A stretch of DNA of 64,000 nucleotides from Corallococcus sp. NCRR. GTDB taxonomy: Bacteria; Myxococcota; Myxococcia; Myxococcales; Myxococcaceae. The notes under the pieces are model-generated. The model was not told where the DNA came from, did not search any database, and worked only from the letters and a program-made list of their open reading frames with translations. Shown one piece after another: positions 3,880 through 19,669 of this stretch. The DNA lies in assembly GCF_026965535.1 (NCBI RefSeq), contig NZ_CP114039.1:8099461-8163460 (forward strand), read 5' to 3'. Numbering within the stretch: the stretch's first letter is position 1; every line of letters begins with the position of its first letter. A program made the position numbers and the translations under genes.

Positions 3880-6126
3880 TTACTGGAACGCCCGGAGATA
3901 CGTGAGGTTGTCCAGGTTGTCGGTGATCGACTCCAGGGCCACCTGGAGCACGCCGTCCGCCGAGGGGTACGCGACGTAGGCGAGGCTGGAGCCCTCCACG
4001 TCCGTGGCCACCACGGAAGCAGGCAGGGTGTAGACGCCCAGGCTGCTCGACTGGCCGGTGTCCACGCCGAAGATGTAGCGGCGGAAGCGCGGCAGCAGCG
4101 TCACCAGGTAGCGGTCCCCCGCGTTGAGGCGGCTCCCCGCGCCGAGGGTCGGCGTCATCGTGAGCGTCAGCGGCGCGGGCACGTAGGTGGTGGGCGTCCT
4201 GGGCGGGTCCAGGCCCAGGTCGAAGCCGTCCGGGTGGTAGTAGTAGTCCAGGAAGGTGGAGACCGTGTACGCCTCGTTGACGTCCAGCCGCTGCAGGTAC
4301 GTGCCGCTGGTCTCCGCGCCCGCGTAGAGCACGAAGGGCTTCACGTTCGGGCCCGCGCGCACGGAGAACGACGGATAGGACGCGCAGGGCTCGGCCGCGG
4401 CGGCGACCGCGGGGTCGGACAGGTCCGGGTAGAGCCGCGTGAGGCCGTCGCCCTGGTCCTCCAGGCGCAGGATGGGGATGACCGCCGCGCAGGCGCCCGC
4501 GTTGTTCGCCAGGATGATGGAGTCGCCGGGAATCACGCCCCGGGCCGTCGCCAGGGCCGTCTCGATGAGGAGCGGAGGGTCCTCCTGGTTCAGGTCGCGG
4601 GAGAGGCCAACCAGCCCGGGCAGCACGCCCTGGAAGACGAAGCGGTACGTCCCGTTGGGCACCGAGCCGTTGCAGAGGAACGCCGTGGCGTTGGTCGCGT
4701 CCTGCACCTGGGGACAGCCGGGCTGGGTCACGGTGATGCCCTGGAACTGATCCGAGCGCAGCTGCTCGTTGCTGTCCAGCAGCTGCGCGGACACCGACGA
4801 GTTCAGCGGCTTGTTCGCGGAGTCGCGGTCCAGGTTGAACGGGCGCCGCTCGTCCGCGCGGAACAGGGTGATCTTCCCGTCGGACGACGGCATGATTCCC
4901 AGGAGCGGAATGGGGGTGATGTAGGGCACGCTGTCCGCCAGGATCTCACGGACCTCCAGGCCCGAGCGCAGCGTGAGGCCCGTGGGCAGGCCCGCGGACG
5001 TCCGCAGGGTCAGCATGGGCGCGCCGGTGATGTCGCGGGCGAGCACCGGCGCCGCGGACGGCGCATTCACCGGATCCGCCCCGTTGTCGAGCGCGATGAC
5101 GCCCTCGCAGTCGGACGAGTTGCACGTCAGCTCGTCCAGCACCACGAACACGAAGCGGCCCGCGGGCCAGGGCTCGATGCAGCTCGTCGTCCCGTCGGTC
5201 TGGGTCTTCACCACCGTGCCCGCCGGGCAGTTCCCATCGTCGAGCTTGGGCTTGGGCACGCTGTAGCTGGGGTGCGTGGCCACGAGCCGCGCCGGGATGT
5301 CCACCAGGTCCGCGTAGTTGGGCACCGCGTAGGGCGCCGGACGCGGCCGCTTGTACGGAATCTCCACGGAGGCCCCGTCCGCGACGACGCGCACGAGCCG
5401 GCTGGTGCCGGACACGTTGCGGATGGCGACCACCAGCGAGTCCACCACGTCCGCCCGCGCGGGCAGCGTGGTCATGGACATCACCGTGTCCGCGGGCTTG
5501 AGGCAGAAGACGGGCAGCGCGGGAGGCAGCGCGGCCGCGTCGAAGCCCTCCGGGCCGGGCAGGTCCTGGCGCATCACCACCCCGCCACCGAAGGGACCGC
5601 AGAGCTGCTCGGCGGCCTCCGGGCGCGTCTGGAGCGCGTAGTACAGGACGCTCGGCGCGCCCTCCGCCACCGGGGCGTGCGCGGTGAAGGCGGTGATGAG
5701 CTGGCCGGTCGCCAGGCGCGTCACCTCGTTGAGGCGCGCGCGGTCCGCGGCCACCACGGAGATGCCGCGGCCGCCGGAGCTGCGCGCGTAGATGTACGGG
5801 CCGGACACGTCATTGCCGTCGCCGTCGTAGCCCACGTCGCGGGTGAGCGAGTCCGGCCGCGCGATGACGGGGATGGCCAGGGGCTCCAGCGGGTTGGGCG
5901 CGGGGATGAACTCACGCGGCGTGCGCGTCAGGTCCAGCACGCGCAGCTCATCCCGGTCCTGCGAGGTGACGAAGACGAGCTGGTTGGAGAGCACCACGTC
6001 GTACGTGCCGGAAAGCCCGGCGGCGCCCGCGGTGGAGGTGGTGTCGGAGCAGGCGAGCGCGAGGCTCGCGCCGCTCAGCACCAGGGCAGCAAGAAAGCCG
6101 CGCTTCAAGGTCAGTTCTCCTGGCAC
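3880..6126 (-). CDS. Large lipoprotein, hypothetical (beta-propeller-like repeats)
   Basis: 748 aa. Lipobox LALACS after a signal peptide. Repeated VxxxxxxLxVxD / YVA-type segments. No recognisable catalytic motif. Confidence 0.55.
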   Translation of the reverse strand: MPGELTLKRGFLAALVLSGASLALACSDTTSTAGAAGLSGTYDVVLSNQLVFVTSQDRDELRVLDLTRTPREFIPAPNPLEPLAIPVIARPDSLTRDVGYDGDGNDVSGPYIYARSSGGRGISVVAADRARLNEVTRLATGQLITAFTAHAPVAEGAPSVLYYALQTRPEAAEQLCGPFGGGVVMRQDLPGPEGFDAAALPPALPVFCLKPADTVMSMTTLPARADVVDSLVVAIRNVSGTSRLVRVVADGASVEIPYKRPRPAPYAVPNYADLVDIPARLVATHPSYSVPKPKLDDGNCPAGTVVKTQTDGTTSCIEPWPAGRFVFVVLDELTCNSSDCEGVIALDNGADPVNAPSAAPVLARDITGAPMLTLRTSAGLPTGLTLRSGLEVREILADSVPYITPIPLLGIMPSSDGKITLFRADERRPFNLDRDSANKPLNSSVSAQLLDSNEQLRSDQFQGITVTQPGCPQVQDATNATAFLCNGSVPNGTYRFVFQGVLPGLVGLSRDLNQEDPPLLIETALATARGVIPGDSIILANNAGACAAVIPILRLEDQGDGLTRLYPDLSDPAVAAAAEPCASYPSFSVRAGPNVKPFVLYAGAETSGTYLQRLDVNEAYTVSTFLDYYYHPDGFDLGLDPPRTPTTYVPAPLTLTMTPTLGAGSRLNAGDRYLVTLLPRFRRYIFGVDTGQSSSLGVYTLPASVVATDVEGSSLAYVAYPSADGVLQVALESITDNLDNLTYLRAFQ

Positions 6127-7640
6127 ACGCTGGTGCCCTGGTTCGGATCACGCTGCTGCTGGATGCCCAGCCTGGCCACCAGCCGCGCGTCCTGGGGACG
6201 CGACAGGTCGGGGATGTCCACGATGGCCACCTGGCTGTCACCGAAGTTGGTCACGAACAGCCGCGCCGCGTTCGTCCCGGCGGGGTTGTCCACCGTCAGC
6301 CCGAAGGCCTGGGACGGGTTGCTGGTCTGGTTCTGGTTGTTGACGAGCGGCACCTGCGCCACGACCTGCCCGAGCGCCTCGTCGTAGAGGGACACCGCGC
6401 TGTCGCCGGTGCTCGTCACCGCGATGATGTGGGTGTCCGCGTTGGACGCGCCCGGCGTCCGCGAGATGATCTGCATGTCGCTCACGCCGTCGGGCATGGG
6501 CACCGCGGAGACCACGCGGAAGAAGGGCTGCGTGGAGGTGCCGCCCGGCACCGCGTCATATTCGAAGTCGAGCGTGAGCAGCGTGTCCGGGCCGCGCGCC
6601 AGCATGTACAGCCGCTCGCGCACGAAGTTCGGACGCACCGCCCGCTCCTCCGCCGTCACCGGACGGGGCACCACGCGCGCGGCGCGCGCCTCGCGGATGC
6701 GGTACTCCGCCTGCAGCGAGGGCTCCAGGATGGTGCCGGGGTCGTTCTTGTCCACCAGCCGCAGCACGAAGTTGCCGGCCACGGTGCCGCTGATGCCGGC
6801 CACGAAGTTGCGGCCCGTCACGTAGAGGAAGCCCGTGCCCACCGTCACCGAATCCGAGCCGCCGTAGAGGTAGCCCTCGGGAGACAGCGAGATGAAGCCC
6901 AGCGAGTCCCGCGTGGGGTTGTCCAGCTTCACCGTGGCCAGGTAGCTCTCGAAGTTGCTGCTGGACCTGGCGGGCGAGTCCGCCGCCTCCGAGTGCGTCA
7001 CGTACAGGTTGCCGCTCGCCTCATCCACCGTCACGCCGATAGGCGACGGAGCGCGGGGCAGGTCCGCGCGCCCCTCGTCGCTGAGGGACGACGGGATGTC
7101 CTCGGTGAGCGACAACGCGCCGGTGCGGCAGTCCATGCCGCCCTGCACGCAGGTGAGCACCGGAGCGCCGTTGGCCTCCAGGCTCACGTCCACCGCGTTC
7201 AGGTTGTTGCCCTCCGCGCGCGAGGGCACGAACAGGCGCGGCAGCCCCGTGGCCGGGTTCACCCACAGGCCCAATTCGCCCGCGAAGCTGCGGATCTGCA
7301 CGAGCGACTCGTCCGCGGACGCCAGGTCCTCGAAAGCGAGCGGAGCGTCCGGGAGCGCGCCGCCCAGGTGGGGCACCGTGACGGTCTGCCCGTCCACCTG
7401 CGTGCTCAGCGTGTCCAGGTTCAGCGCCACCACCGAACCGGAGTCGTAGCAGTTGTCGAAGTTGGCGTTCGCGACGAACAGGTAGCCATTGCTCGCCGAC
7501 GGGCCGCCCGCCGCTGGAGGGCGCCAGAAGGCCACCCCGCTGGGGTACACGAAGCGGGTGGACGGAGGCGGGTTCGGTTCGGATTCAATCGAACACGCCC
7601 CGAGGAGCAGCAGCGCGGGAGTCAGGAAGTGGAGGCGCAT
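6111..7640 (-). CDS. Lipoprotein, hypothetical (YVTN/YncE-like beta-propeller repeats)
   Basis: Start chosen at MRLHFLTPALLLLGACS (lipobox). The ORF extends upstream to 7778 without signal logic. Motifs YLFVANANFD..VVALNL, LYVTHSEA, RLFVTNFGDSQVAIVDI. 16 bp overlap with the downstream lipoprotein gene. Confidence 0.5.
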   Translation of the reverse strand: MRLHFLTPALLLLGACSIESEPNPPPSTRFVYPSGVAFWRPPAAGGPSASNGYLFVANANFDNCYDSGSVVALNLDTLSTQVDGQTVTVPHLGGALPDAPLAFEDLASADESLVQIRSFAGELGLWVNPATGLPRLFVPSRAEGNNLNAVDVSLEANGAPVLTCVQGGMDCRTGALSLTEDIPSSLSDEGRADLPRAPSPIGVTVDEASGNLYVTHSEAADSPARSSSNFESYLATVKLDNPTRDSLGFISLSPEGYLYGGSDSVTVGTGFLYVTGRNFVAGISGTVAGNFVLRLVDKNDPGTILEPSLQAEYRIREARAARVVPRPVTAEERAVRPNFVRERLYMLARGPDTLLTLDFEYDAVPGGTSTQPFFRVVSAVPMPDGVSDMQIISRTPGASNADTHIIAVTSTGDSAVSLYDEALGQVVAQVPLVNNQNQTSNPSQAFGLTVDNPAGTNAARLFVTNFGDSQVAIVDIPDLSRPQDARLVARLGIQQQRDPNQGTSVCQEN

Positions 7641-7808
7641 CAGAGGGGGGCGGAGTGTAGGAACGCGGCCCTGCCCCGGGCAACTGAATAGGGCGTCTGC
7701 TATTCCCGGTCGCCCTCTCGCCGACATCCGCCCCCATCCACGGGGCGTGCGCCGCTCCCCTGGTGGGGGAACGGGCACGCTCCGGGGCGGAGGAAGAGCG
7801 GCCAGGCG

Positions 7809-9917
7809 TCAGGCCGCGGCGGTCTCGGCCTGGATCTTGGAAAAGTCCGCCACCTGGTTGAACAGGGCGCCAATCTCCGTGAGGAACCGGATGCGGTTCT
7901 CCCGCAGGTCCTTGTCCTCGGCCATCACCATCACCTTGTCGAAGAAGGTGTCCACGGCGGGCTTCAGGCCGGTGATCTCCTTGAGCGCGCCGGCGAAGTC
8001 GTCCGCGCGCACGTGCTCACCCACCCGGGTGCGCGCCTGGGTGAAGGCGGTGTGGAGGTTCTTCTCCGGCTCGTCGGTGAACCGCTGCGGGTTGGTCTGC
8101 CCGCCGGCCACGTCCTTGCCCTGCTTCTCCACGATGTTGACCACGCGCTTGAACGCCGCCGCCAGCGGCTGGAAGTCCGAGTGGCCCACGAGCACGCTCA
8201 GGGCCTCCAGGCGCTTCTTCGCCGCCACGAGGTCGTCGAAGCCCACGGACAGCACCGCCTCCACGACGTCCGTGCGGTGCTGCTCGCCCCACAGCGCCTT
8301 GAGGCGGCCGCGGAAGAACTCCAGCACCTGCTCGCGCGGGGCCGCCTCACCCGGCTTGCGCTTCACGTTGGCCAGCTTGGGGGCCAGCAGGCGCAGCGCC
8401 TCATCCACCGCGGCGGACAGGCTGAAGCGGTAGCCGCGCCCCAGCACGATGCGGATGATGGACAGGCACGCGCGGCGCAGCGCGAACGGATCCGCCGCGC
8501 CGGACGGCGCCCTGCCAATGGCGAAGATGCCGCACAGCGAGTCCAGCCGGTCCGCTAGGCCGATGAGCGCGCCCGCGTCCTGCGACGGCAGCGCGTCCTC
8601 GGCGCCGCGGGGCAGGTAGTGCTCGAAGATGGCCAGCGCCACCGCGTCGGGCTCGCCGCCCGCCTTCGCGTACTCGCGGCCCATCACGCCCTGGAGCTCC
8701 GGGAACTCGCCCACCATGCCGGTGACGAGGTCCGCCTTGGACAGCGTGGCGGCGCGCTCCACCGTGGCCGCCTCCCCTGCCCTGCCCGTGGCCTGGGCCA
8801 GCCAGCCCGCCAGCGCGCGGAAGCGCTCCACCTTCTCCAGGTACGTGCCCAGCTGACCCTGCCACACCACGCGGCCCAGCTTCTCCACGCGGTCGGCCAG
8901 CGGGGTGCGGCGGTCCTCGTCGAAGAAGAAGCGCCCGTCCGCGAGCCGCGCCGCCAGCACGCGCTGGTAGCCGCGCAGGGACAGCTGCTCGTCGCGCACC
9001 GGCGTGTTGGACACGGCGATGAAGCGCGGCAGGAGCTTCCCCTTCGCGTCCGTCAGGGAGAAGTAGCGCTGGTGGCTCTTCATCTCCTGCACCAGGACCT
9101 CCGGCGGCAGGTCCAGGTGGCGCTCCTCGAAGCTGCCCACCACGGGGCTCGGCAGCTCCACCAGGTTCGTCACCTGGTCCACCAGGCCCTCGTCCTCCAG
9201 GAGCCGGGCGCCCGCCGAGGCGGCCGCGGCGTTCACCTTGCGCACCAGCTCCGCGCGGCGCTTCGCGATGTCCGCGATGACGTGCGCCTTCTCCAGCGCG
9301 GCCTCGTAGTCCGCGGGCGCCTTCAGCGTGATGGCGCCCGGCGCGAGGAAGCGGTGGCCGTAGGTCGTGCGGCCCGACTTCACGTCGCCCAGCACCACCG
9401 GCAGCTGCGTGTCGCCCAGGAGCGCCACCAGCCACTGCACCGGGCGCGCGAAGGCCGTGTCCACGTCACCCCAGCGCATGGACTTCTTGAAGTTGATGCC
9501 GTGCACCGCCGCGTGCAGCGCGTCCTGGAGGATGGCCTCCGCGGGACGGCCCTTCTCCTCCACGCGCGCGGAGAGGTACTCGCCCTTGGCGTTGGTGGTG
9601 CGCCCGAGCGCGTCCACGGACAGCTTGAGGCTCTCGGCGAACTTCTCCGCCGCCTTGGTGGGCTTGCCCTGCGCGTCGAAGGCGGCCTTGGCGCTGGGCC
9701 CCAGCACCTCCTTCGTGATGTCCTCGCCCGCGTCCGCCACGTCGCGGACCTGGACGGCCAGCCGGCGCGGCGTGCCGAACGTGCGCACCTCGCCGTGCTT
9801 CAGGCGGGCGTCGGCCATGCGCTCGGTGAGCACGCGCTTCAGGTCCTCCAGCGCGGGGATGATGAACGACGCCGGGATCTCCTCGGCGCCGACCTCCAGC
9901 AGCAGATCACGCGCCAC
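7809..9917 (-). CDS. glyS: Glycine--tRNA ligase beta subunit
   Basis: 702 aa, [19 protein letters not shown].. Full-length similarity to GlyS. Overlaps the glyQ end by 11 bp. Confidence 0.9.
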
Positions 9918-10988: not shown

Positions 10989-13258
10989 TCAGTCCGAGTA
11001 GTCCGGCAGGTCGGCCAGTCGAATCTGCAGCTTCGTCACCTCGCCGGGACGGATGGGAGCGGACAACAGCTTGCTCGTACCGCCGGGATCCTGCGGGTCC
11101 ACCACGCGCAGACGGTACGTCCCGATGGGCAGGGGGAACTTGTTCAACGGGGACGTGCCCAGTTGCGTGGCGCCGTCGAACACGGCCGCGTTCTTCGGCA
11201 CCGTGTAGAGCGTCAGCCAGCCCAGGCCCGCCTTCGCAGCGCCCTTGGAGGTGCTCGTGTCGAGCACCTCCGGGTTCTCCTCCTGAGAGACGGTGGTGAC
11301 GGGCTCCGGGGACCGCTCCGTGGGCGCGGGCTTCGCGGGGCGCGGCTCCGCCTTCGCCACCACGGGCGCGGGCGCGTCCGTCGTGGCGGCCGGCTTCGTC
11401 TTGCGTCCCCCCTTGGCAGCGGGGGCCTGCTTCGTGTCGATGGGCGGCGCGACCACCACCGGTTCGGGCGGGGGCGTCGGATCAACCTGCGCGGGCTCGG
11501 GGGTGGTCTTCTGGACGAAACCCGGCGGAGGACCGGAGGGCTTCGGCGGCCACTGTCCGTTCGCGGCGGGGTCCACCGGAGGGGGCGGATCCAGCTCCGC
11601 CTTCACCCACTGCTTCGCGGAGTCGAACGCCGGCATGAACACGCGGCGCACGGGTTCGAGCGTCGCCAGGTACGCCACGCCGCCCAGGAGGAAGAGCAGG
11701 AACAACCGCATGCCCCAGCCGGAGCCCTCGCGCACGGGCGGGGCCACGGGGGGCGCTTCTTCAACGGACGCCTCTTGCTCCACCTGCCGCGAGGACCGCG
11801 CGGTGCCGCGCACCGGGCGGGCCTTGAAGCGCTGGGTCTGGAGCTCGCTGGGCGGATCCATCAGCCCGTCGGACGGGGCTGCGTCGCGGGCTTCGGCGGG
11901 CTCCGGCCGAGCGCTGGGACGGGCCCGCGAGGGCCGCACGGCGTCCGCGGGAGGACGAACGACCCGGGGAACTGGCGTCCCATCCGCCCCCGCGGGCCGC
12001 TGCGCTCGCGGCGTCACGGCGGGCGTGTTGACGCGAGAGGCGCGGGCCTCCACGGCCTCATTGGCGGGACGCGGGGTCGCGCGGGGCGCGGGCGTCGCGG
12101 ACTCCGTGGCGGTGCGGCGGACGGGCGTGGGCTTGAAGGACGCCGCGACGTCCGGGGACGGGGCCTCCGCGTGCGGCGACTTCACCTGCGCGGTGGCCGC
12201 CGAGGCGGCCTGCTCACTGCCCTCCTCCACCTGGAGCGCGCCGGCGGCCTCGCTGACGCGGGCGTCCTCGGCGCGGCTGGCCAGCTCCAGGAGCGTGCGC
12301 GTCTTCTGGCGCTTCTCCTCGAAGAGCTCGCCCATGACGGCGGTCATCTGGTCTTCGTCGAACAGCTCGGAGCCCAGCGTGGCCTCGATGGCGCGCGCCA
12401 TCTCCCGGCAGGTGCCGAAGCGCTGGGTGGTATCGCGCGACAGCGCCTTGAGCACCACCGCTTCCAGGGCCTCCGGCACGGCCGCGTTGAGCGAGCGCGG
12501 CGCGGGGATGTCCCCGTCCACGATTTGCATCATCACGGCGGCCTCGCCGGGCGCGTTGAACAGGCGCTGTCCGGCGAGCAGCTCATGGAGCATCACGCCG
12601 GTGGAGAACTGGTCGCTGCGGCCATCCAGGTCCTTGTTGCGCACCTGCTCCGGGGACATGTACCCGCTGGTCCCCTTCACGGTGCCCACCTGCGTGCGGC
12701 CCAGCTTGCCGCGCGCCTTGGCGATGCCGAAGTCGATCACCTTCACGACGCCGTCGTAGGTGAGCATCACGTTCTTCGGGGACACGTCGCGGTGCACCAC
12801 CGCCACGGGGCGGCCGGACGGGTCCATGAAGTGGTGGGCGTAGTGCAGGCCCAGGCACGTGTCGCGGATGACACGCGCGCTGAAGCCCAGCGGCAGCGCG
12901 TACTTGCGCCGCTCCGCCATCTTCACCACCTGCTCCAGGTTCTGGCCGGGCAGGAACTCCATGGCGAGGTACAGCTCGCCGTCCTCCTCCCCCAGGTCGA
13001 ACACCTGTCCGATGTTCGCGTGCGAGAAGGCCGCGGTGATGCGCGCCTCGTCGAGGAACATCTTGACGAACTGGTCGTCCTTCTTGATGTCGGGGAGGAT
13101 CTGCTTCACCGCCACGAACTTGCGGAAGCCACCGGGGCCGGAGGTGTACGCGAGGAACAGCTCCGCCATCCCGCCCATCGAGAGTCGGGTGAGGATCTCG
13201 TACTTTCCAATGCGCCGCCCCCGGTCGGGATCGTCTCCGGCGACTCCCTGCGTACTCA
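10989..13258 (-). CDS. Membrane Ser/Thr protein kinase with Pro-rich linker and C-terminal PEGA domain
   Basis: Start at MSTQGVAGDDPDRGRRIGKYEIL. The ORF-track start at 13499 is an upstream in-frame extension. Hanks kinase motifs (VAVK, HRDVSPKNVML, DFGIAK, SGYMSPEQ). TM LFLLFLLGGVAYLA. PEGA-like C-terminus LTLYTVPKNAAVFDG..GTYRLRV. Confidence 0.8.
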
Positions 13259-13354
13259 TGGCGGAGGCGGATGTTACCCGCCCAACCCTCCCAGGTCGAT
13301 GATCGTCTTTCCAGACCGGCCGCTCCCCCGAGCCAGGAGCCCGGAGAAAGCGGC

Positions 13355-14143
13355 TTAGGCGCCGAAACGCCGGCGCCGCACGTCGAGCATCCAGGCCTCG
13401 AGCGCGGCCACGGCCGCCGGTTGTGGCTCCAGAGGCAACACGGAGGCCGCGTCCGCCGCGTCGAGCACCGCGAAGGCGCGCGTCACCTCCCCCTGCCACT
13501 GCGCGCTGAGCGCGTCGGTCAGCTCGATGCGCTCACCGCTCCGCTTGCGCTCCACCAGCGCTCGGGCTTCGCCAAAGCCATACGGCTCCAGCAGGACGGT
13601 GACGTCCGTCTCCACCTCGCCCGTGCGCAGCGCGTGCGTTCCAGTGAGCGTCGTGCGCAGCACGTACAGCAACTTCTTCACGGAGCGGAATCCGCTCTTC
13701 TCCCACTCGCGGAGCTGTCCCTGCGCGAAGCCGCGATAGTGCCGGTGGATGCGCCGCGACAGCACGGTCCGCACCCGCGGACGCAGCGCCTCCAGATCCG
13801 GCAGGGCCCGCACGGTGATGGCCCCCAGCACGCGCTCGATGTAGTTGCCGTTGCCCTGGAGGATGCCCAGCAGCACGGGCTGCAGCTCGTTGGACGAGTA
13901 GTCCACCTCCACGCCCTCCAGCACCTCCAGCCGCTCCGCCGGCACGTGCCGGGGCTGGAGGCCCAGGAGCGCGGCGGTGGGCGCGATGTGGATGGCCTTC
14001 AGGTCCAGGTCGCTGTCATGCGACGGGAAACCGTACGCATGCGCGCCCGACAGCGAGATGACCAGGTGCTCGCGCAGGAGGGACTCCGCGTCCAGCACGC
14101 GGTCCGCCATGCGCTCCTGATGCTCCGTCACCCTGCCCTTCAT
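13355..14143 (-). CDS. Pol-beta superfamily nucleotidyltransferase (COG3541/RlaP-like)
   Basis: 262 aa. hG[GS]..DhDh motif LSGAHAYGFPSHDSDLDLK. Strong SD (GGAAGGAGGGA) before the ATG. The ATG overlaps the upstream gene stop (ATGA). Confidence 0.6.
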   Translation of the reverse strand: MKGRVTEHQERMADRVLDAESLLREHLVISLSGAHAYGFPSHDSDLDLKAIHIAPTAALLGLQPRHVPAERLEVLEGVEVDYSSNELQPVLLGILQGNGNYIERVLGAITVRALPDLEALRPRVRTVLSRRIHRHYRGFAQGQLREWEKSGFRSVKKLLYVLRTTLTGTHALRTGEVETDVTVLLEPYGFGEARALVERKRSGERIELTDALSAQWQGEVTRAFAVLDAADAASVLPLEPQPAAVAALEAWMLDVRRRRFGA

Positions 14144-15429
14144 TCCGTCCCTCCTTCCAGCGCCGGGGCTTCCGGCGCGTCACGGCCCAGCGGTCCGGGC
14201 GTCTTCAAGACCCAGCGCCGCGCTACCTCGTCTCCCACGCGACGCAACAGCCGGTCCGCGCGGGCGTAGTCCGGATGCTCCGGCAGCCGGCTCTCACGGT
14301 GCGCGGCCTCCAGCGCCGGAGCCATCGCCTCGGCGTCGCGCAGCACGTCCTCCAGGGGCACCTGTCCCCCCTTGATGTCGAGCAGCCGCGACTTCAACGC
14401 CCCCGTCGCCTCGAAGGTGGGCACGCCGTCGCGCAGCCAGCCCGTGGCCAGCGCCACCAGCCTCAGCAGGTTGTAGGCGTTCTTCGGCCGCAGCTCGCGA
14501 GCGGACGGAGGACGCTGGCCGCCGCCGCGCGCGTATGCCGTGAGCGCCGCGAAGTCGTTGGACGTGAGCAGCCCCTGGTCCCAGAGCGAGCGGTAGAGCT
14601 GCTTGACGTACGTCTTCGCCGCGAGCACCGCGTCTTCGGGCGTGGGCGCGGCGCGGGGGCTCATGGCGGCCAGGCGACGGGCCACCTCGTCCAGGTCCGG
14701 CGTGGGCTCCTCGCACAGCCATGCGAGGAGCAGGTCGCGGTGCTCGGCCAGCCGCTGGCTGCGGGTGAGCTTGTCGAGTTGGCTCATGGCGTAGCGCCCG
14801 AAGCTGCCGAAGATGGCCTTGGAGACGAACGCCTCGCGCGCCTCCAGCACCCACGTGCCCAGCTCGTCCACCGCCGTCGCGCCGGGGACGAAGAGGGTCT
14901 CCAGCGTGTTCGGGTCCGCGCGCAGCGCCTGCTCCACCGTCTTGCGGACCTCCCAGTACGTGGTGCTGCCATCCGCGCTCACCAGGTCCTGCGGCGGCTG
15001 GCCCAGCCCCAGCGTCCACGGGAGCGGCAACGCGAACACCCCGCGCACGTCCACGTCGGAGCGCTCATCCGCGAGCCCCCAGGCGTGACTGCCCACGCGC
15101 GTCTCCAGCACCACGCACGGCCGCAGCGCGCCCCAGGCCGCCTCGCGCCGCTGGGCGAACTGCACCTGTCCCGCGCGCCGGGGCACCAGCTCATCGCGCG
15201 CGAACCACACCTCACCCACGCCGACGATCTGCACGTCGAAGCCGCCGTCATGCGCGCGCACCACGCGGCCCACCACGCCCTGGGGGATGCGGCGTCCCCC
15301 GGACGCCACGCGCTCCACGCGGGTGGTGACCTCGGTGCCGTGCGGCAGGGGCACCGACAGCCGGTCAATCTGCTCCAGTCCCCGGACGCGCGCCGGAGCG
15401 GAGGAAGAAGTCTCGCGGGTGTCACTCAT
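14140..15429 (-). CDS. Pol-beta superfamily nucleotidyltransferase, paralog with long C-terminal extension
   Basis: Start at MSDTRET (SD AGGGGGA 5 nt upstream). Motif VGSHAWGLADERSDVDVRGV parallels the downstream paralog. About 170 aa C-terminal helical extension. Confidence 0.6.
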   Translation of the reverse strand: MSDTRETSSSAPARVRGLEQIDRLSVPLPHGTEVTTRVERVASGGRRIPQGVVGRVVRAHDGGFDVQIVGVGEVWFARDELVPRRAGQVQFAQRREAAWGALRPCVVLETRVGSHAWGLADERSDVDVRGVFALPLPWTLGLGQPPQDLVSADGSTTYWEVRKTVEQALRADPNTLETLFVPGATAVDELGTWVLEAREAFVSKAIFGSFGRYAMSQLDKLTRSQRLAEHRDLLLAWLCEEPTPDLDEVARRLAAMSPRAAPTPEDAVLAAKTYVKQLYRSLWDQGLLTSNDFAALTAYARGGGQRPPSARELRPKNAYNLLRLVALATGWLRDGVPTFEATGALKSRLLDIKGGQVPLEDVLRDAEAMAPALEAAHRESRLPEHPDYARADRLLRRVGDEVARRWVLKTPGPLGRDAPEAPALEGGTE

Positions 15430-15507
15430 CGGTTCCCCCTGGATGGGATGGTGGGCCACGCAGGACGCAGCCAAGCACACGAGCCTGACCCGGCACGGCG
15501 CTTCCCG

Positions 15508-16522
15508 TCAGCGAGCGACACGCCGCATGGCGGGGAGCGCGGGCAGCAGCCCCTCCACTTCGGAGGCCAGGGGGAGCGCCGACACCGCGCCCAGCTTCGT
15601 CACCACCCGGGCTCCCACGCCCGCCGCGAAGGTCATCAGCGCGACCAGGTCCTCGCGCGTCGCATCCTCCAGCGAGCGCGCGTCGCCGTACCCGCGCACC
15701 AGGCCGCTCAGCATGGCGGACACGAAGCCATCCCCCGCGCCCGTCGTGTCCACCACCGTCACCTGGGGCGCCGGCACGGAGAGGACCTCGCCGCGCCAGA
15801 GGAACACCGCGCCGCGAGGGCCCAGCGTCACCACGGGCAGCCGCACCCCCTTCGCGGCCAGGACGTGCAGGGCCGCCTCGGGCGAGTGCTCGCCGGTCGC
15901 GAAGTGGATCTCCTCCTCGGACAGCTTCACCACCGTGCACAGCGGGAGCATGCGCCCCAGAAGGGCTCGCAGCTCCTCGGGCTGCGTCCACATGTGCAGC
16001 CGCAGGTTCGGGTCACAGCTCACCAGCATCCCGGCCTCACGGGCCAGGGTGAGCATGCGCACCATGGCCTCGCGCGCCTCCGGCAGGAGCAGGGAGTTGG
16101 AGCCGCAGTGCAGCGCCTTCGCGCGCCGCACGAAGGCGCCGTCCACGTCGGAGTCGTCCAGCAGGAACTCCGCGGACCGAGTCCGGAAGTACGTGAAGCT
16201 GCGCTCGCCCTGCGCGTCCAGCGAGACGAACAACAGGCCCGTGCGCGCGTGGTCCACCTGGCGCAGGCGGCTCACGTCCACGCCGTCCGCCGCCAACCGG
16301 TCGCGCAGGAAGTGGCCGAACTCATCGGAGCCCACCACGCCCACCATCGCCGAGCGCAGGCCCAACCGCGCGAGCCCCACGGAGACGTTGGCCGGTGAGC
16401 CTCCCGGCGACGGCTTCCAGGCCTCCACGTCCCGCACGCGCGAGGCGCCGCCGGCCACGGGGAGGAAGTCCACCAACGTTTCGCCGACACACACCACGTC
16501 CAGCGGCCCGGCTTCGTGCATG
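15508..16522 (-). CDS. PfkB-family carbohydrate kinase (fructokinase/ribokinase-like)
   Basis: Start at MHEAGPLDVVCVGETLVDF. The ORF-track N-terminal extension to 16818 overlaps recO in another frame. GG motif and C-terminal TGAGDGF signature. Confidence 0.75.
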
Positions 16523-18486: not shown

Positions 18487-18951
18487 TCAGAACGCGGCCA
18501 GGAAGCGGCCCAGGGTGGTGGCGACGTTGCGCTTCTCTTCGGCGCGGGCCTTCACGGCGGGCACGAGCGTGGGCTCCCGGAAGAACACGGGCAGCGTCTT
18601 CAGCCACTCGTCCTGCTGCGCGGGGGCCGCGGCACGCCAGTTCGCGTTGTCCATCATGAAGCCCAGCGACTCCACGAACGCGAGCGCGTCGTCCTCGTCC
18701 TCGCGCAGCTCCTCCGCGGACTGGATGCGCCGGCCGGACACGTACACCGCGCAGTCCCCCGCCTCCACCAGGTACAGGTACACGAAGACGCCCGCGCCCT
18801 GCCCGCCCCGCAGCCCCACCACGAAGGCCTGCGCGGGCCCGGCCTGCTTGCCGGGAATGGCCACGTGCGGCGTGTTGAGGGACAGGTGCAGCGCGAGCAC
18901 CTGGTCGCGGTTGGCGGGAAGGCCCCGGTAGCGCTCGTCGATGGTGAACAC
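18487..18951 (-). CDS. Hypothetical protein
   Basis: Start assigned to a GTG preceded by SD AAGGGAG. Lies 25 bp after the upstream gene stop. No recognisable domain. Confidence 0.4.
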   Translation of the reverse strand: MFTIDERYRGLPANRDQVLALHLSLNTPHVAIPGKQAGPAQAFVVGLRGGQGAGVFVYLYLVEAGDCAVYVSGRRIQSAEELREDEDDALAFVESLGFMMDNANWRAAAPAQQDEWLKTLPVFFREPTLVPAVKARAEEKRNVATTLGRFLAAF

Positions 18952-18976
18952 CGTCGTCTCCCTTCCCGCGCACACC

Positions 18977-19669
18977 CTAGCGGGTGGTGAGCGTGAACTC
19001 CTCGGTCGCGTCCTGCGAGTCCGCAGCCGTCTTCTGGAAGCGGATGAGGGGCGTGTCAATCATCACGTTGCCACCGCCCTCGTTCCCCTCGCCGATGATC
19101 ACCTTGAAGACGTTCCCGGGCGACGTGCTGCGGCGGCTGCCCGTGTTCTGCTTGCGGGCAATCAGCGTCACCGCGTTCGCGCCGGGACGCAACTGGCTGG
19201 TGATGTCCACCACCACCTGATCCTCGTTGTTGCGCAAACGGCGCAGCCAGCGCGAGTTCACGTACACGTCGATGTCGAAGTCCGTCATGCCCGGCGTCGT
19301 CTGCTCCGTCACCAGCCAGTAGCGCTGGGTGATGCGCCCCGGCGCGGTGGGGGCGGCAGCGGGCGCGGCCGGAGCGGGGGCCTGCGCGACGACACCCGCG
19401 TCCACCGGGGCGGCGGCGGGAGGCGTGGCGGTGGAAGGCGACGTGGGCGTGGGCGTCACGTTCGTCACGCGGGCGGCGTAGCCCGGCGCGTCGATGTGGA
19501 CGTTGCCTTCCGCGTCGATGCGGACGGTGGCCTTCTCGAAGCGCGTGTTCGTCACCCCGTCGATCTTCACGCCATTCAGGAAGACCGAGCCGGCGAGGGC
19601 CAGCATGGGGACGAGCGAGGCCGCGACGGTGAGGGCGATTCGGGCGGACGGACGGGGCATGGGGGGCAT
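18977..19669 (-). CDS. Secreted hypothetical protein with Pro/Ala/Thr-rich linker
   Basis: Signal peptide IALTVAASLVPMLALAGS. TPTPTSPSTATPPAAAP linker. C-terminal beta-rich domain. Confidence 0.45.
   Translation of the reverse strand: MPPMPRPSARIALTVAASLVPMLALAGSVFLNGVKIDGVTNTRFEKATVRIDAEGNVHIDAPGYAARVTNVTPTPTSPSTATPPAAAPVDAGVVAQAPAPAAPAAAPTAPGRITQRYWLVTEQTTPGMTDFDIDVYVNSRWLRRLRNNEDQVVVDITSQLRPGANAVTLIARKQNTGSRRSTSPGNVFKVIIGEGNEGGGNVMIDTPLIRFQKTAADSQDATEEFTLTTR

Follow-up and report, generated by a model that had tools for sequence, protein, structure and literature searches.

A pair of neighbouring genes on the minus strand of Corallococcus sp. NCRR (contig NZ_CP114039.1) was studied in a window of 64,000 nucleotides, i.e., the whole stretch of DNA that was analysed. 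The genes, named L (long) and S (short), were assigned to the RlaP family of nucleotidyltransferases (NTases), Pfam PF10127, and this assignment is almost certain. It is also very probable that L and S are functionally coupled. With moderate confidence, the pair as a whole is read as a two-subunit RlaP enzyme that would add nucleotides to RNA 3' ends. The pair is not a novel kind of system. However, its fixed architecture of two RlaP subtypes, coupled or fused and carrying an SH3/KOW-like domain, is not described in the accessible literature, in which the original RlaP description is not covered. In that literature only single RlaPs are mentioned, and two comparative papers regard RlaP as one accessory NTase by which nucleotides are replaced ahead of ligation.

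Both proteins were recognized by the PF10127 profile, whose gathering cut-off is 23 bits. S was aligned with 87.3 bits (E 1.7e-24) at residues 30-253, i.e., profile positions 24-248 of 249, and L with 73.2 bits (E 3.5e-20) at residues 106-225, i.e., positions 20-144. L covers only part of the profile because its C-terminal domain has diverged. L also matched the phage protein family phrog_388 (nucleotidyltransferase) at residues 106-403, and S matched phrog_14344. The two proteins are distant paralogues with 34% identity over 58 aa (E 8e-5). NCBIfam profiles matched neither protein, and a phmmer search of PDB sequences gave nothing for S and only chance matches for L. A sequence-only reading of the window had taken the pair for Pol-beta-superfamily NTases of the RlaP type and had proposed the PF10127 search, which both proteins pass. 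It had named a GlnE-like housekeeping assignment or non-conserved catalytic Asp residues as results that would speak against it, and neither was seen. No GlnE/GlnD or other housekeeping family was matched in Pfam or NCBIfam, Foldseek matches to GlnE domains were weak (probability 0.18-0.60), and the catalytic Asp residues are conserved in orthologues. In databases, Corallococcus orthologues of L are often named 'UDP-phosphate N-acetylglucosaminyl 1-phosphate transferase', which no profile backs and which is wrong, and the name 'DNA polymerase beta superfamily protein' is uninformative.

The signature G[SA]xxxG...SDxD, already noticed as common to the two genes, was present in L and S and invariant in their orthologues. 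The invariance was read in alignments of 16, 15, 55 and 67 sequences, covering orthologues, fusions and short relatives, in which G113-S114, D125 and D127 of L and G33, D45 and D47 of S did not vary. The third carboxylate of S is D81, with E79 also kept. The full signature of Pol-beta NTases, i.e., G[SA], DxD and a third carboxylate, was found in this way, the third acid of L being less certain and probably provided by D153.

The two open reading frames (ORFs), the ATGA stop/start overlap and the strong Shine-Dalgarno sequences that had been pointed out from the letters were all located. The reverse complement of positions 14144-14158 reads GGAAGGAGGGACGGA and is followed by the S ATG, and at the L site the minus strand reads ...CCAGGGGGAACCGATGAGT. 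A longer GTG-initiated ORF for L (start 15480) is not supported because the orthologues start where the ATG lies. The window is high in GC, and the best protein matches were Corallococcus proteins with 95-98% identity.

The pair is conserved far beyond the genus. A scan with one genome per species gave 331 loci with an L relative, of which the best 80 were used for the locus counts. These 80 were labelled Myxococcota, i.e., Corallococcus, Myxococcus, Pyxidicoccus, Cystobacter, Archangium, Stigmatella-like, Hyalangium and Anaeromyxobacteraceae, except locus L015, which was labelled Comamonas sp. KCTC 72670. L orthologues are 65-98% identical across Myxococcia, and Myxococcus xanthus has the same L-S pair. 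S follows L in about 66 of the 80 species-representative loci, and every flanking gene differs between genera. Because 57 of 71 Myxococcia pairs show the order L then S joined by an ATGA/GTGA overlap of 4 nt, the coupling is far above chance. Pairwise divergences of L and S were correlated (r = 0.93, 64 pairs), with S evolving slightly faster.

Natural fusions of the two genes were also found. Exhaustive profile-free search with L returned many proteins of 640-725 aa. The alignment with L spans the first ~400 residues and takes in the barrel described below, and the last ~260 residues are S-like (GAHAYGFPSPDSDLDLKG ... GNGN..ER ... HHY.GF). With one fusion as query, word-indexed search gave more than 100 clusters of L-S fusions. 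The named clusters were Myxococcota or metagenome-assembled genomes (MAGs) labelled 'Deltaproteobacteria', and one partial match was labelled Vicinamibacteria. Both sets of catalytic motifs were invariant in the fusions (55-sequence alignment). An AlphaFold2 (AF2) model of one natural fusion had a predicted local distance difference test score (pLDDT) of 92.6 and a disordered linker at residues 393-403.

Relatives of the pair were found among RNA-repair genes. More distant relatives of L, of 300-316 aa, have the same barrel and NTase core and are referred to as SH3-RlaPs. In locus L085, the order is Hen1, SH3-RlaP, a 253-aa RlaP, an Ank/SUKH protein and Pnkp, and the 4-nt overlap between the SH3-RlaP and the 253-aa RlaP is again present (5065-5068). 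In locus L087, the order is SH3-RlaP, Thg1 and a 253-aa RlaP. The 253-aa RlaPs of the Hen1/Pnkp and Thg1 operons share 33% identity with S along its entire length (E ~1e-36), and S is much closer to them than to L. Therefore, the S-type and the L-type are two old RlaP subfamilies that keep each other's company.

In metagenomes, 17 short SH3-RlaPs used as queries led to 80 loci, 72 of them informative. An S-type RlaP was near the SH3-RlaP in 64 of the 72, directly adjacent downstream in 43. Of the 80 contigs, 21 carry Hen1 and/or Pnkp and three carry Thg1, and RtcB was immediately upstream in locus L102. Where the contig extends 5 kb or more in both directions, only 3 of 16 loci have Hen1/Pnkp, so the pair often stands alone outside Myxococcia too.

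Repair genes also occur beside the long form within Myxococcota. In locus L171, a fused L-S gene is divergent from rtcR, i.e., an RtcR-type sigma-54 activator, with no rtcBA between them (5022-6629, 7001-9046); no canonical GG-N10-GC sigma-54 promoter match was found in the region between rtcR and the fusion. In a MAG (L074), the distance between rtcR-rtcB-rtcA and an unfused L-S pair is 2-4 kb (8001-9641, 11893-15895), and in locus L070 a Hen1 fragment is upstream of L. The sequence-only reading had mentioned RlaP-type pairs in RNA-repair and conflict systems; the part on RNA repair was borne out in these relatives, and no signal of a defence system was found for the other part.

L has 167 aa more than S. 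These had been described as a C-terminal extension of roughly 170 aa, but the alignment and AF2 place them in an N-terminal domain and an insert of ~80 aa. The N-terminal domain, of ~100 aa, is a nearly invariant barrel followed by a helix. The insertion faces a gap of ~82 columns in S and in proteins P0369, P0366 and P0345 (alignment A6), and it is not present in the 300-316-aa SH3-RlaPs. AF2 predicted helices in it at residues 246-256, 264-284 and 293-301. The ends of L and S match, with equivalent C-terminal LP..P motifs. The AF2 model of L (pLDDT 89.9; predicted template-modelling score, pTM, 0.81) consists of the SH3-like barrel, the NTase core and a helical domain. The closest solved folds are NTases with helical C-terminal domains, i.e., HalB, ANT(4'), AadA and LinB, of which HalB is nearest to L.

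Extracytoplasmic function (ECF) sigma promoters carry CGTC in the -10 element. The sequence GTCAGG-N16-CGTCC, ahead of L, is its sole match in the window. In 41 of 82 Myxococcia loci, in six genera with differing upstream genes, it precedes L by 60-110 nt, and about 0.007 matches per 230-nt stretch are expected by chance. It is considered a putative ECF-type promoter and suggests that L-S may be transcribed as a separate unit that responds to stress. A sigma-70 scan around the pair gave no promoter-like site, and a terminator scan there gave a single terminator-like site, no more than shuffled sequences (mean 0.5). The features are collected in the table.

Table. Features of the L-S pair in the window and loci with L alone
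Feature	Position	Strand	Description
Gene L	14140..15429	minus	429 aa; ATG at 15429; SH3/KOW-RlaP nucleotidyltransferase (long subunit, putative); starts MSDTRE
Gene S	13355..14143	minus	262 aa; canonical-size RlaP nucleotidyltransferase (short subunit, putative)
ATGA overlap	14140..14143	minus	L stop TGA and S start ATG; seen in the sequence; translational coupling
Shine-Dalgarno AGGAGG for S	14150..14155	minus	within the L 3' end, 6 nt before the S ATG
Shine-Dalgarno-like GGGGGA for L	15434..15439	minus	4 nt before the L ATG
L N-terminal barrel	15166..15366	minus	residues ~22-88; five-stranded, SH3/KOW/Tudor-like; without Pfam match
L NTase core	14815..15114	minus	residues ~106-205; minimal Pol-beta; G113-S114-x-A116-W117-G118, S124-D125-x-D127, D153, W159-E160
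L helical insertion	14500..14754	minus	residues ~226-310; in the predicted C-terminal helical (HEPN/KNTase_C-like) domain; from alignment and AF2
S motifs	within 13355..14143	minus	G33-x-H35-A36-Y37-G38, S44-D45-x-D47, E79/D81, GNGN..ER, HRHY.GF
GTCAGG-N16-CGTCC	15463..15489	minus	candidate ECF-sigma-like -35/-10; in the 78-nt gap from the PfkB stop to the L ATG
L without S within 8 kb	L042-L048, L050, L052, L065		Hyalangium clade and MAGs

The biochemistry of RlaP has become known only recently, from two Pseudomonas enzymes. PfRlaP and PaRlaP, of P. fluorescens and P. aeruginosa, are encoded in rtcB-rlaP-rtcA operons and add one or two nucleoside monophosphates to RNA 3'-OH ends (PMC12776372). 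They prefer nicked-tRNA mimics and Mn2+, have little specificity for the nucleoside triphosphate (NTP) and are inactive on DNA and proteins, and in the RlaP crystal structure the NTase domain and a helical domain form a cleft (PMC12776372). Paired or heteromeric RlaPs are not mentioned in that work (PMC12776372).

From these properties and the evidence above, a mechanism can be proposed. L and S would be two subunits of one RlaP-type RNA 3'-end NTase, most likely heteromeric and at least obligatorily co-expressed. Lost nucleotides would be restored by them, so that the RNA could be re-ligated or re-used. The SH3/KOW-like barrel of L would probably anchor the complex on RNA or the ribosome, and with two active sites, two additions could be made, either in succession or of different kinds. 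In Corallococcus and other Myxococcia, the pair is a vertically inherited, stand-alone operon of two genes, with a candidate ECF-like promoter of its own. Family membership, intact catalytic motifs, conserved coupling, fusion and the repair contexts of relatives are shown by the analysis; we infer that L and S bind each other, that this pair acts on RNA 3' ends, that the SH3-like domain serves as an anchor and that the two sites share the work.

A bolder form of this proposal is offered tentatively and is itself doubtful. In it, L-S would be an obligate heteromeric patching enzyme with two active sites, whose subunits divide the labour, e.g., the first and second nucleotide or different ends. 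The pair, and not a single RlaP, would be the ancestral accessory of Pnkp/Hen1 repair, and in Myxococcia it would have become a ligase-independent, ECF-controlled core pair for RNA-end maintenance under stress.

Several observations weigh against the two-subunit RNA 3'-end enzyme. No gene for an RNA ligase, RtcB, RtcA, RtcR, Pnkp, Hen1 or Thg1 was found in the window, and in most Myxococcia the RNA-repair genes do not adjoin the pair. The association that gave RlaP its name, i.e., an RNA-repair operon, is thus missing at this locus and present in relatives. The characterised RlaPs are single proteins of another sequence subcluster, to which no sequence or PDB match of the pair was obtained, and the substrate specificity of the pair may differ from theirs. 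In about 10 of the 80 species representatives, i.e., the Hyalangium clade and some MAGs, no S accompanies L within 8 kb, and in one species (L066) S is 7 kb downstream of L; the partnership may therefore not be obligatory. Myxococcia L has S155 at the position where the fusions hold D or E and S holds D81. The invariant D153 is two residues before S155, on the same face of a strand, and the third carboxylate of L would thus be displaced, or possibly lost. The fusion model has a pTM of 0.59 versus 0.81 for L alone, which most simply means that the placement of the two modules relative to each other, and with it a fixed L-S interface, is not confidently predicted. As a readout of such an interface, the fusion model was rejected, since a pTM of 0.59 argues neither for nor against one.

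Among other explanations, the one that survives best is that L and S are independent RlaP enzymes. They would be co-regulated in one operon, form no complex and act on different substrates or steps. Complete catalytic motifs in each protein, the unfixed module orientation in the fusion model, L without adjacent S in some lineages and the Thg1 gene between the two RlaPs of L087 are all consistent with it. However, recurrent fusion in the order L then S in so many clusters, together with the 4-nt coupling, is a classic sign of a stoichiometric and usually physical partnership. Obligate dimers whose subunits share active sites are also formed by ANT(4'), the solved NTase nearest in structure. Independent enzymes are a real alternative of rather low probability.

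A small-molecule NTase was considered from the structure search. The pair would then resemble ANT(4'), AadA or LinB and inactivate a toxic metabolite as a KNTase-like dimer. The top Foldseek PDB matches of the fusion model were ANT(4') structures 6nmk and 1kny (E ~2e-4, target-normalised template-modelling score 0.44-0.49), followed by AadA and LinB, and myxobacteria live among antibiotic producers. However, identity to these structures is only 10-16%, and a PDB copy without an RlaP structure may explain the matches. No Pfam or PDB phmmer match to aminoglycoside or lincosamide NTase families was obtained. By sequence the pair belongs to RlaP, a family in which RNA is the only substrate of the tested members, and relatives of the pair are accompanied by RNA-repair genes. 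Domains of the SH3/KOW type are typically seen in proteins that bind nucleic acids or ribosomes. An antibiotic NTase is thus very unlikely.

A nucleotide-signal synthase of an anti-phage or conflict system is, if anything, less probable again. Second-messenger synthesis had been raised as a possibility from the letters alone; as a CD-NTase (CBASS) or a Hailong HalB-like enzyme, the pair would produce an oligonucleotide, cyclic or linear, to control an effector. HalB is the fold nearest to L, but no HalA ion-channel partner was found at the pair. PADLOC gave no match at E <= 0.1 for L or S with PADLOC-DB 2023, which predates Hailong. PF10127 is the sole Pfam family in both proteins, with no SMODS/CD-NTase match, and no effector-like gene is conserved beside the pair, where all flanks vary between genera. 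Across Myxococcia, the pair is conserved and its two members diverge together in the manner of a core gene, and the recurring partners of its relatives are RNA-repair enzymes.

Least probable of all is a signalling module with the membrane Ser/Thr kinase, e.g., with the pair as a protein nucleotidylyltransferase: a Pkinase-domain protein does start ~95 nt downstream of the pair on the same strand, as had been described, and Pol-beta NTases such as GlnE modify proteins, but no GlnE or other protein-AMPylase family was matched and synteny contradicts the relevance that had been implied for this neighbour, the adjacency being found in the genus Corallococcus only (loci L001-L012). Tested RlaPs also do not label proteins (PMC12776372).

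The flanking genes in Corallococcus, checked with Pfam, encode the Ser/Thr kinase, GlyQ/GlyS, a PfkB kinase, RecO, an HTH protein and a TPR protein. They all flank the pair in those same Corallococcus loci only, and the flanks in Myxococcus and Stigmatella are wholly different. A functional link to the Ser/Thr kinase, PfkB, RecO or GlyQS was rejected because of this limited synteny. Between the TPR and SLT transglycosylase genes of the window, two partly overlapping ORFs were found on the minus strand, i.e., 18487-19059 (190 aa) and 18977-19669 (230 aa). They have no Pfam match and are conserved in Corallococcus loci by tblastn, and their boundaries are tentative.

Further observations were made at other loci with L. 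Hyalangium versicolor (L048) has a convergent ORF of 241 aa after L, a purine-nucleoside phosphorylase by eye only. The S genes beside L look frameshifted or truncated in two MAG contigs (L064:9266-10034; L074:9287-9641), which is either assembly error or real decay. A 155-aa ORF without Pfam match lies between SH3-RlaP and S-type RlaP in one metagenome locus (L149:7945-8412). A partnerless SH3-RlaP of 303 aa (L090:3987-4898) was found in phage-like surroundings, i.e., thymidylate kinase, amidase, glucosaminidase and many small ORFs.

In Myxococcus and Pyxidicoccus, a protein of 1032 aa is encoded on the strand opposite to L-S, at a distance of 1-2 kb. It carries MJ1316, Exo_endo_phos, 2H/LigT-like and poly(A)-polymerase central domains, and it was identified at L081:11103-14201 (Myxococcus sp. 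MISCRS1) and also in loci L019, L020, L022, L024, L040 and L057. A remnant of ~80 aa is left in the M. xanthus group, and the protein was not found in Archangium or Stigmatella. It is a possible RNA-end-processing partner. A link of this MJ1316 + EEP + 2H + PAP_central protein to the pair was rejected, since it is limited to Myxococcus and Pyxidicoccus and is not in this window.

The pair has meaning for RlaP biochemistry, in which it is an open problem how a template-independent enzyme with little NTP specificity usefully restores lost nucleotides. A large part of the RlaP family is a fixed pair of two subtypes, which recurs in Hen1/Pnkp, Thg1 and Rtc contexts. The pair offers a concrete hypothesis, i.e., a heteromeric enzyme with two sites and a domain that would anchor it on RNA or the ribosome, and Myxococcus xanthus is a tractable host.

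Compared with the Pseudomonas RlaP (PMC12776372), the pair shares the Pfam family, the layout of an NTase core with a predicted C-terminal helical domain and the catalytic Asp residues, and S has the same size (~250 aa). Relatives of the pair likewise accompany RtcB, RtcR and Pnkp/Hen1. The Pseudomonas enzyme is a single protein, whereas two coupled or fused subtypes are found here, of which L adds the SH3/KOW-like domain and the insertion of ~80 aa. The former is encoded in an rtcB-rlaP-rtcA operon, whereas the Corallococcus pair has no RNA ligase gene nearby.

The RlaP pairs of Pnkp/Hen1 operons (Hen1 - SH3-RlaP - RlaP - Pnkp; L085, L126, L166 and L168) have the same gene order and catalytic motifs as L-S and often the 4-nt overlap. 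Their version of L is 300-316 aa and has no helical insertion. Relative to them, the Myxococcia pair has lost its Hen1/Pnkp neighbours or never had them, and it is vertically inherited.

CCA addition is split in Aquifex, Deinococcus and Synechocystis, where the CC-adding and the A-adding enzymes are separate Pol-beta NTases. As in the proposed L-S enzyme, two paralogous Pol-beta NTases jointly rebuild an RNA 3' end, the division of labour between L and S being hypothetical. The split enzymes belong to the class II CCA-adding family, and they are not coupled in an operon or fused like L-S.

ANT(4') and related NTases are more distant, with 10-16% identity, small-molecule substrates, a homodimer and no SH3-like domain. 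They have the NTase domain followed by a helical C-terminal domain that is predicted for L and S. The active sites of the ANT(4') dimer are composite, and it is reasonable to consider this dimer a possible model for an L-S heterodimer.

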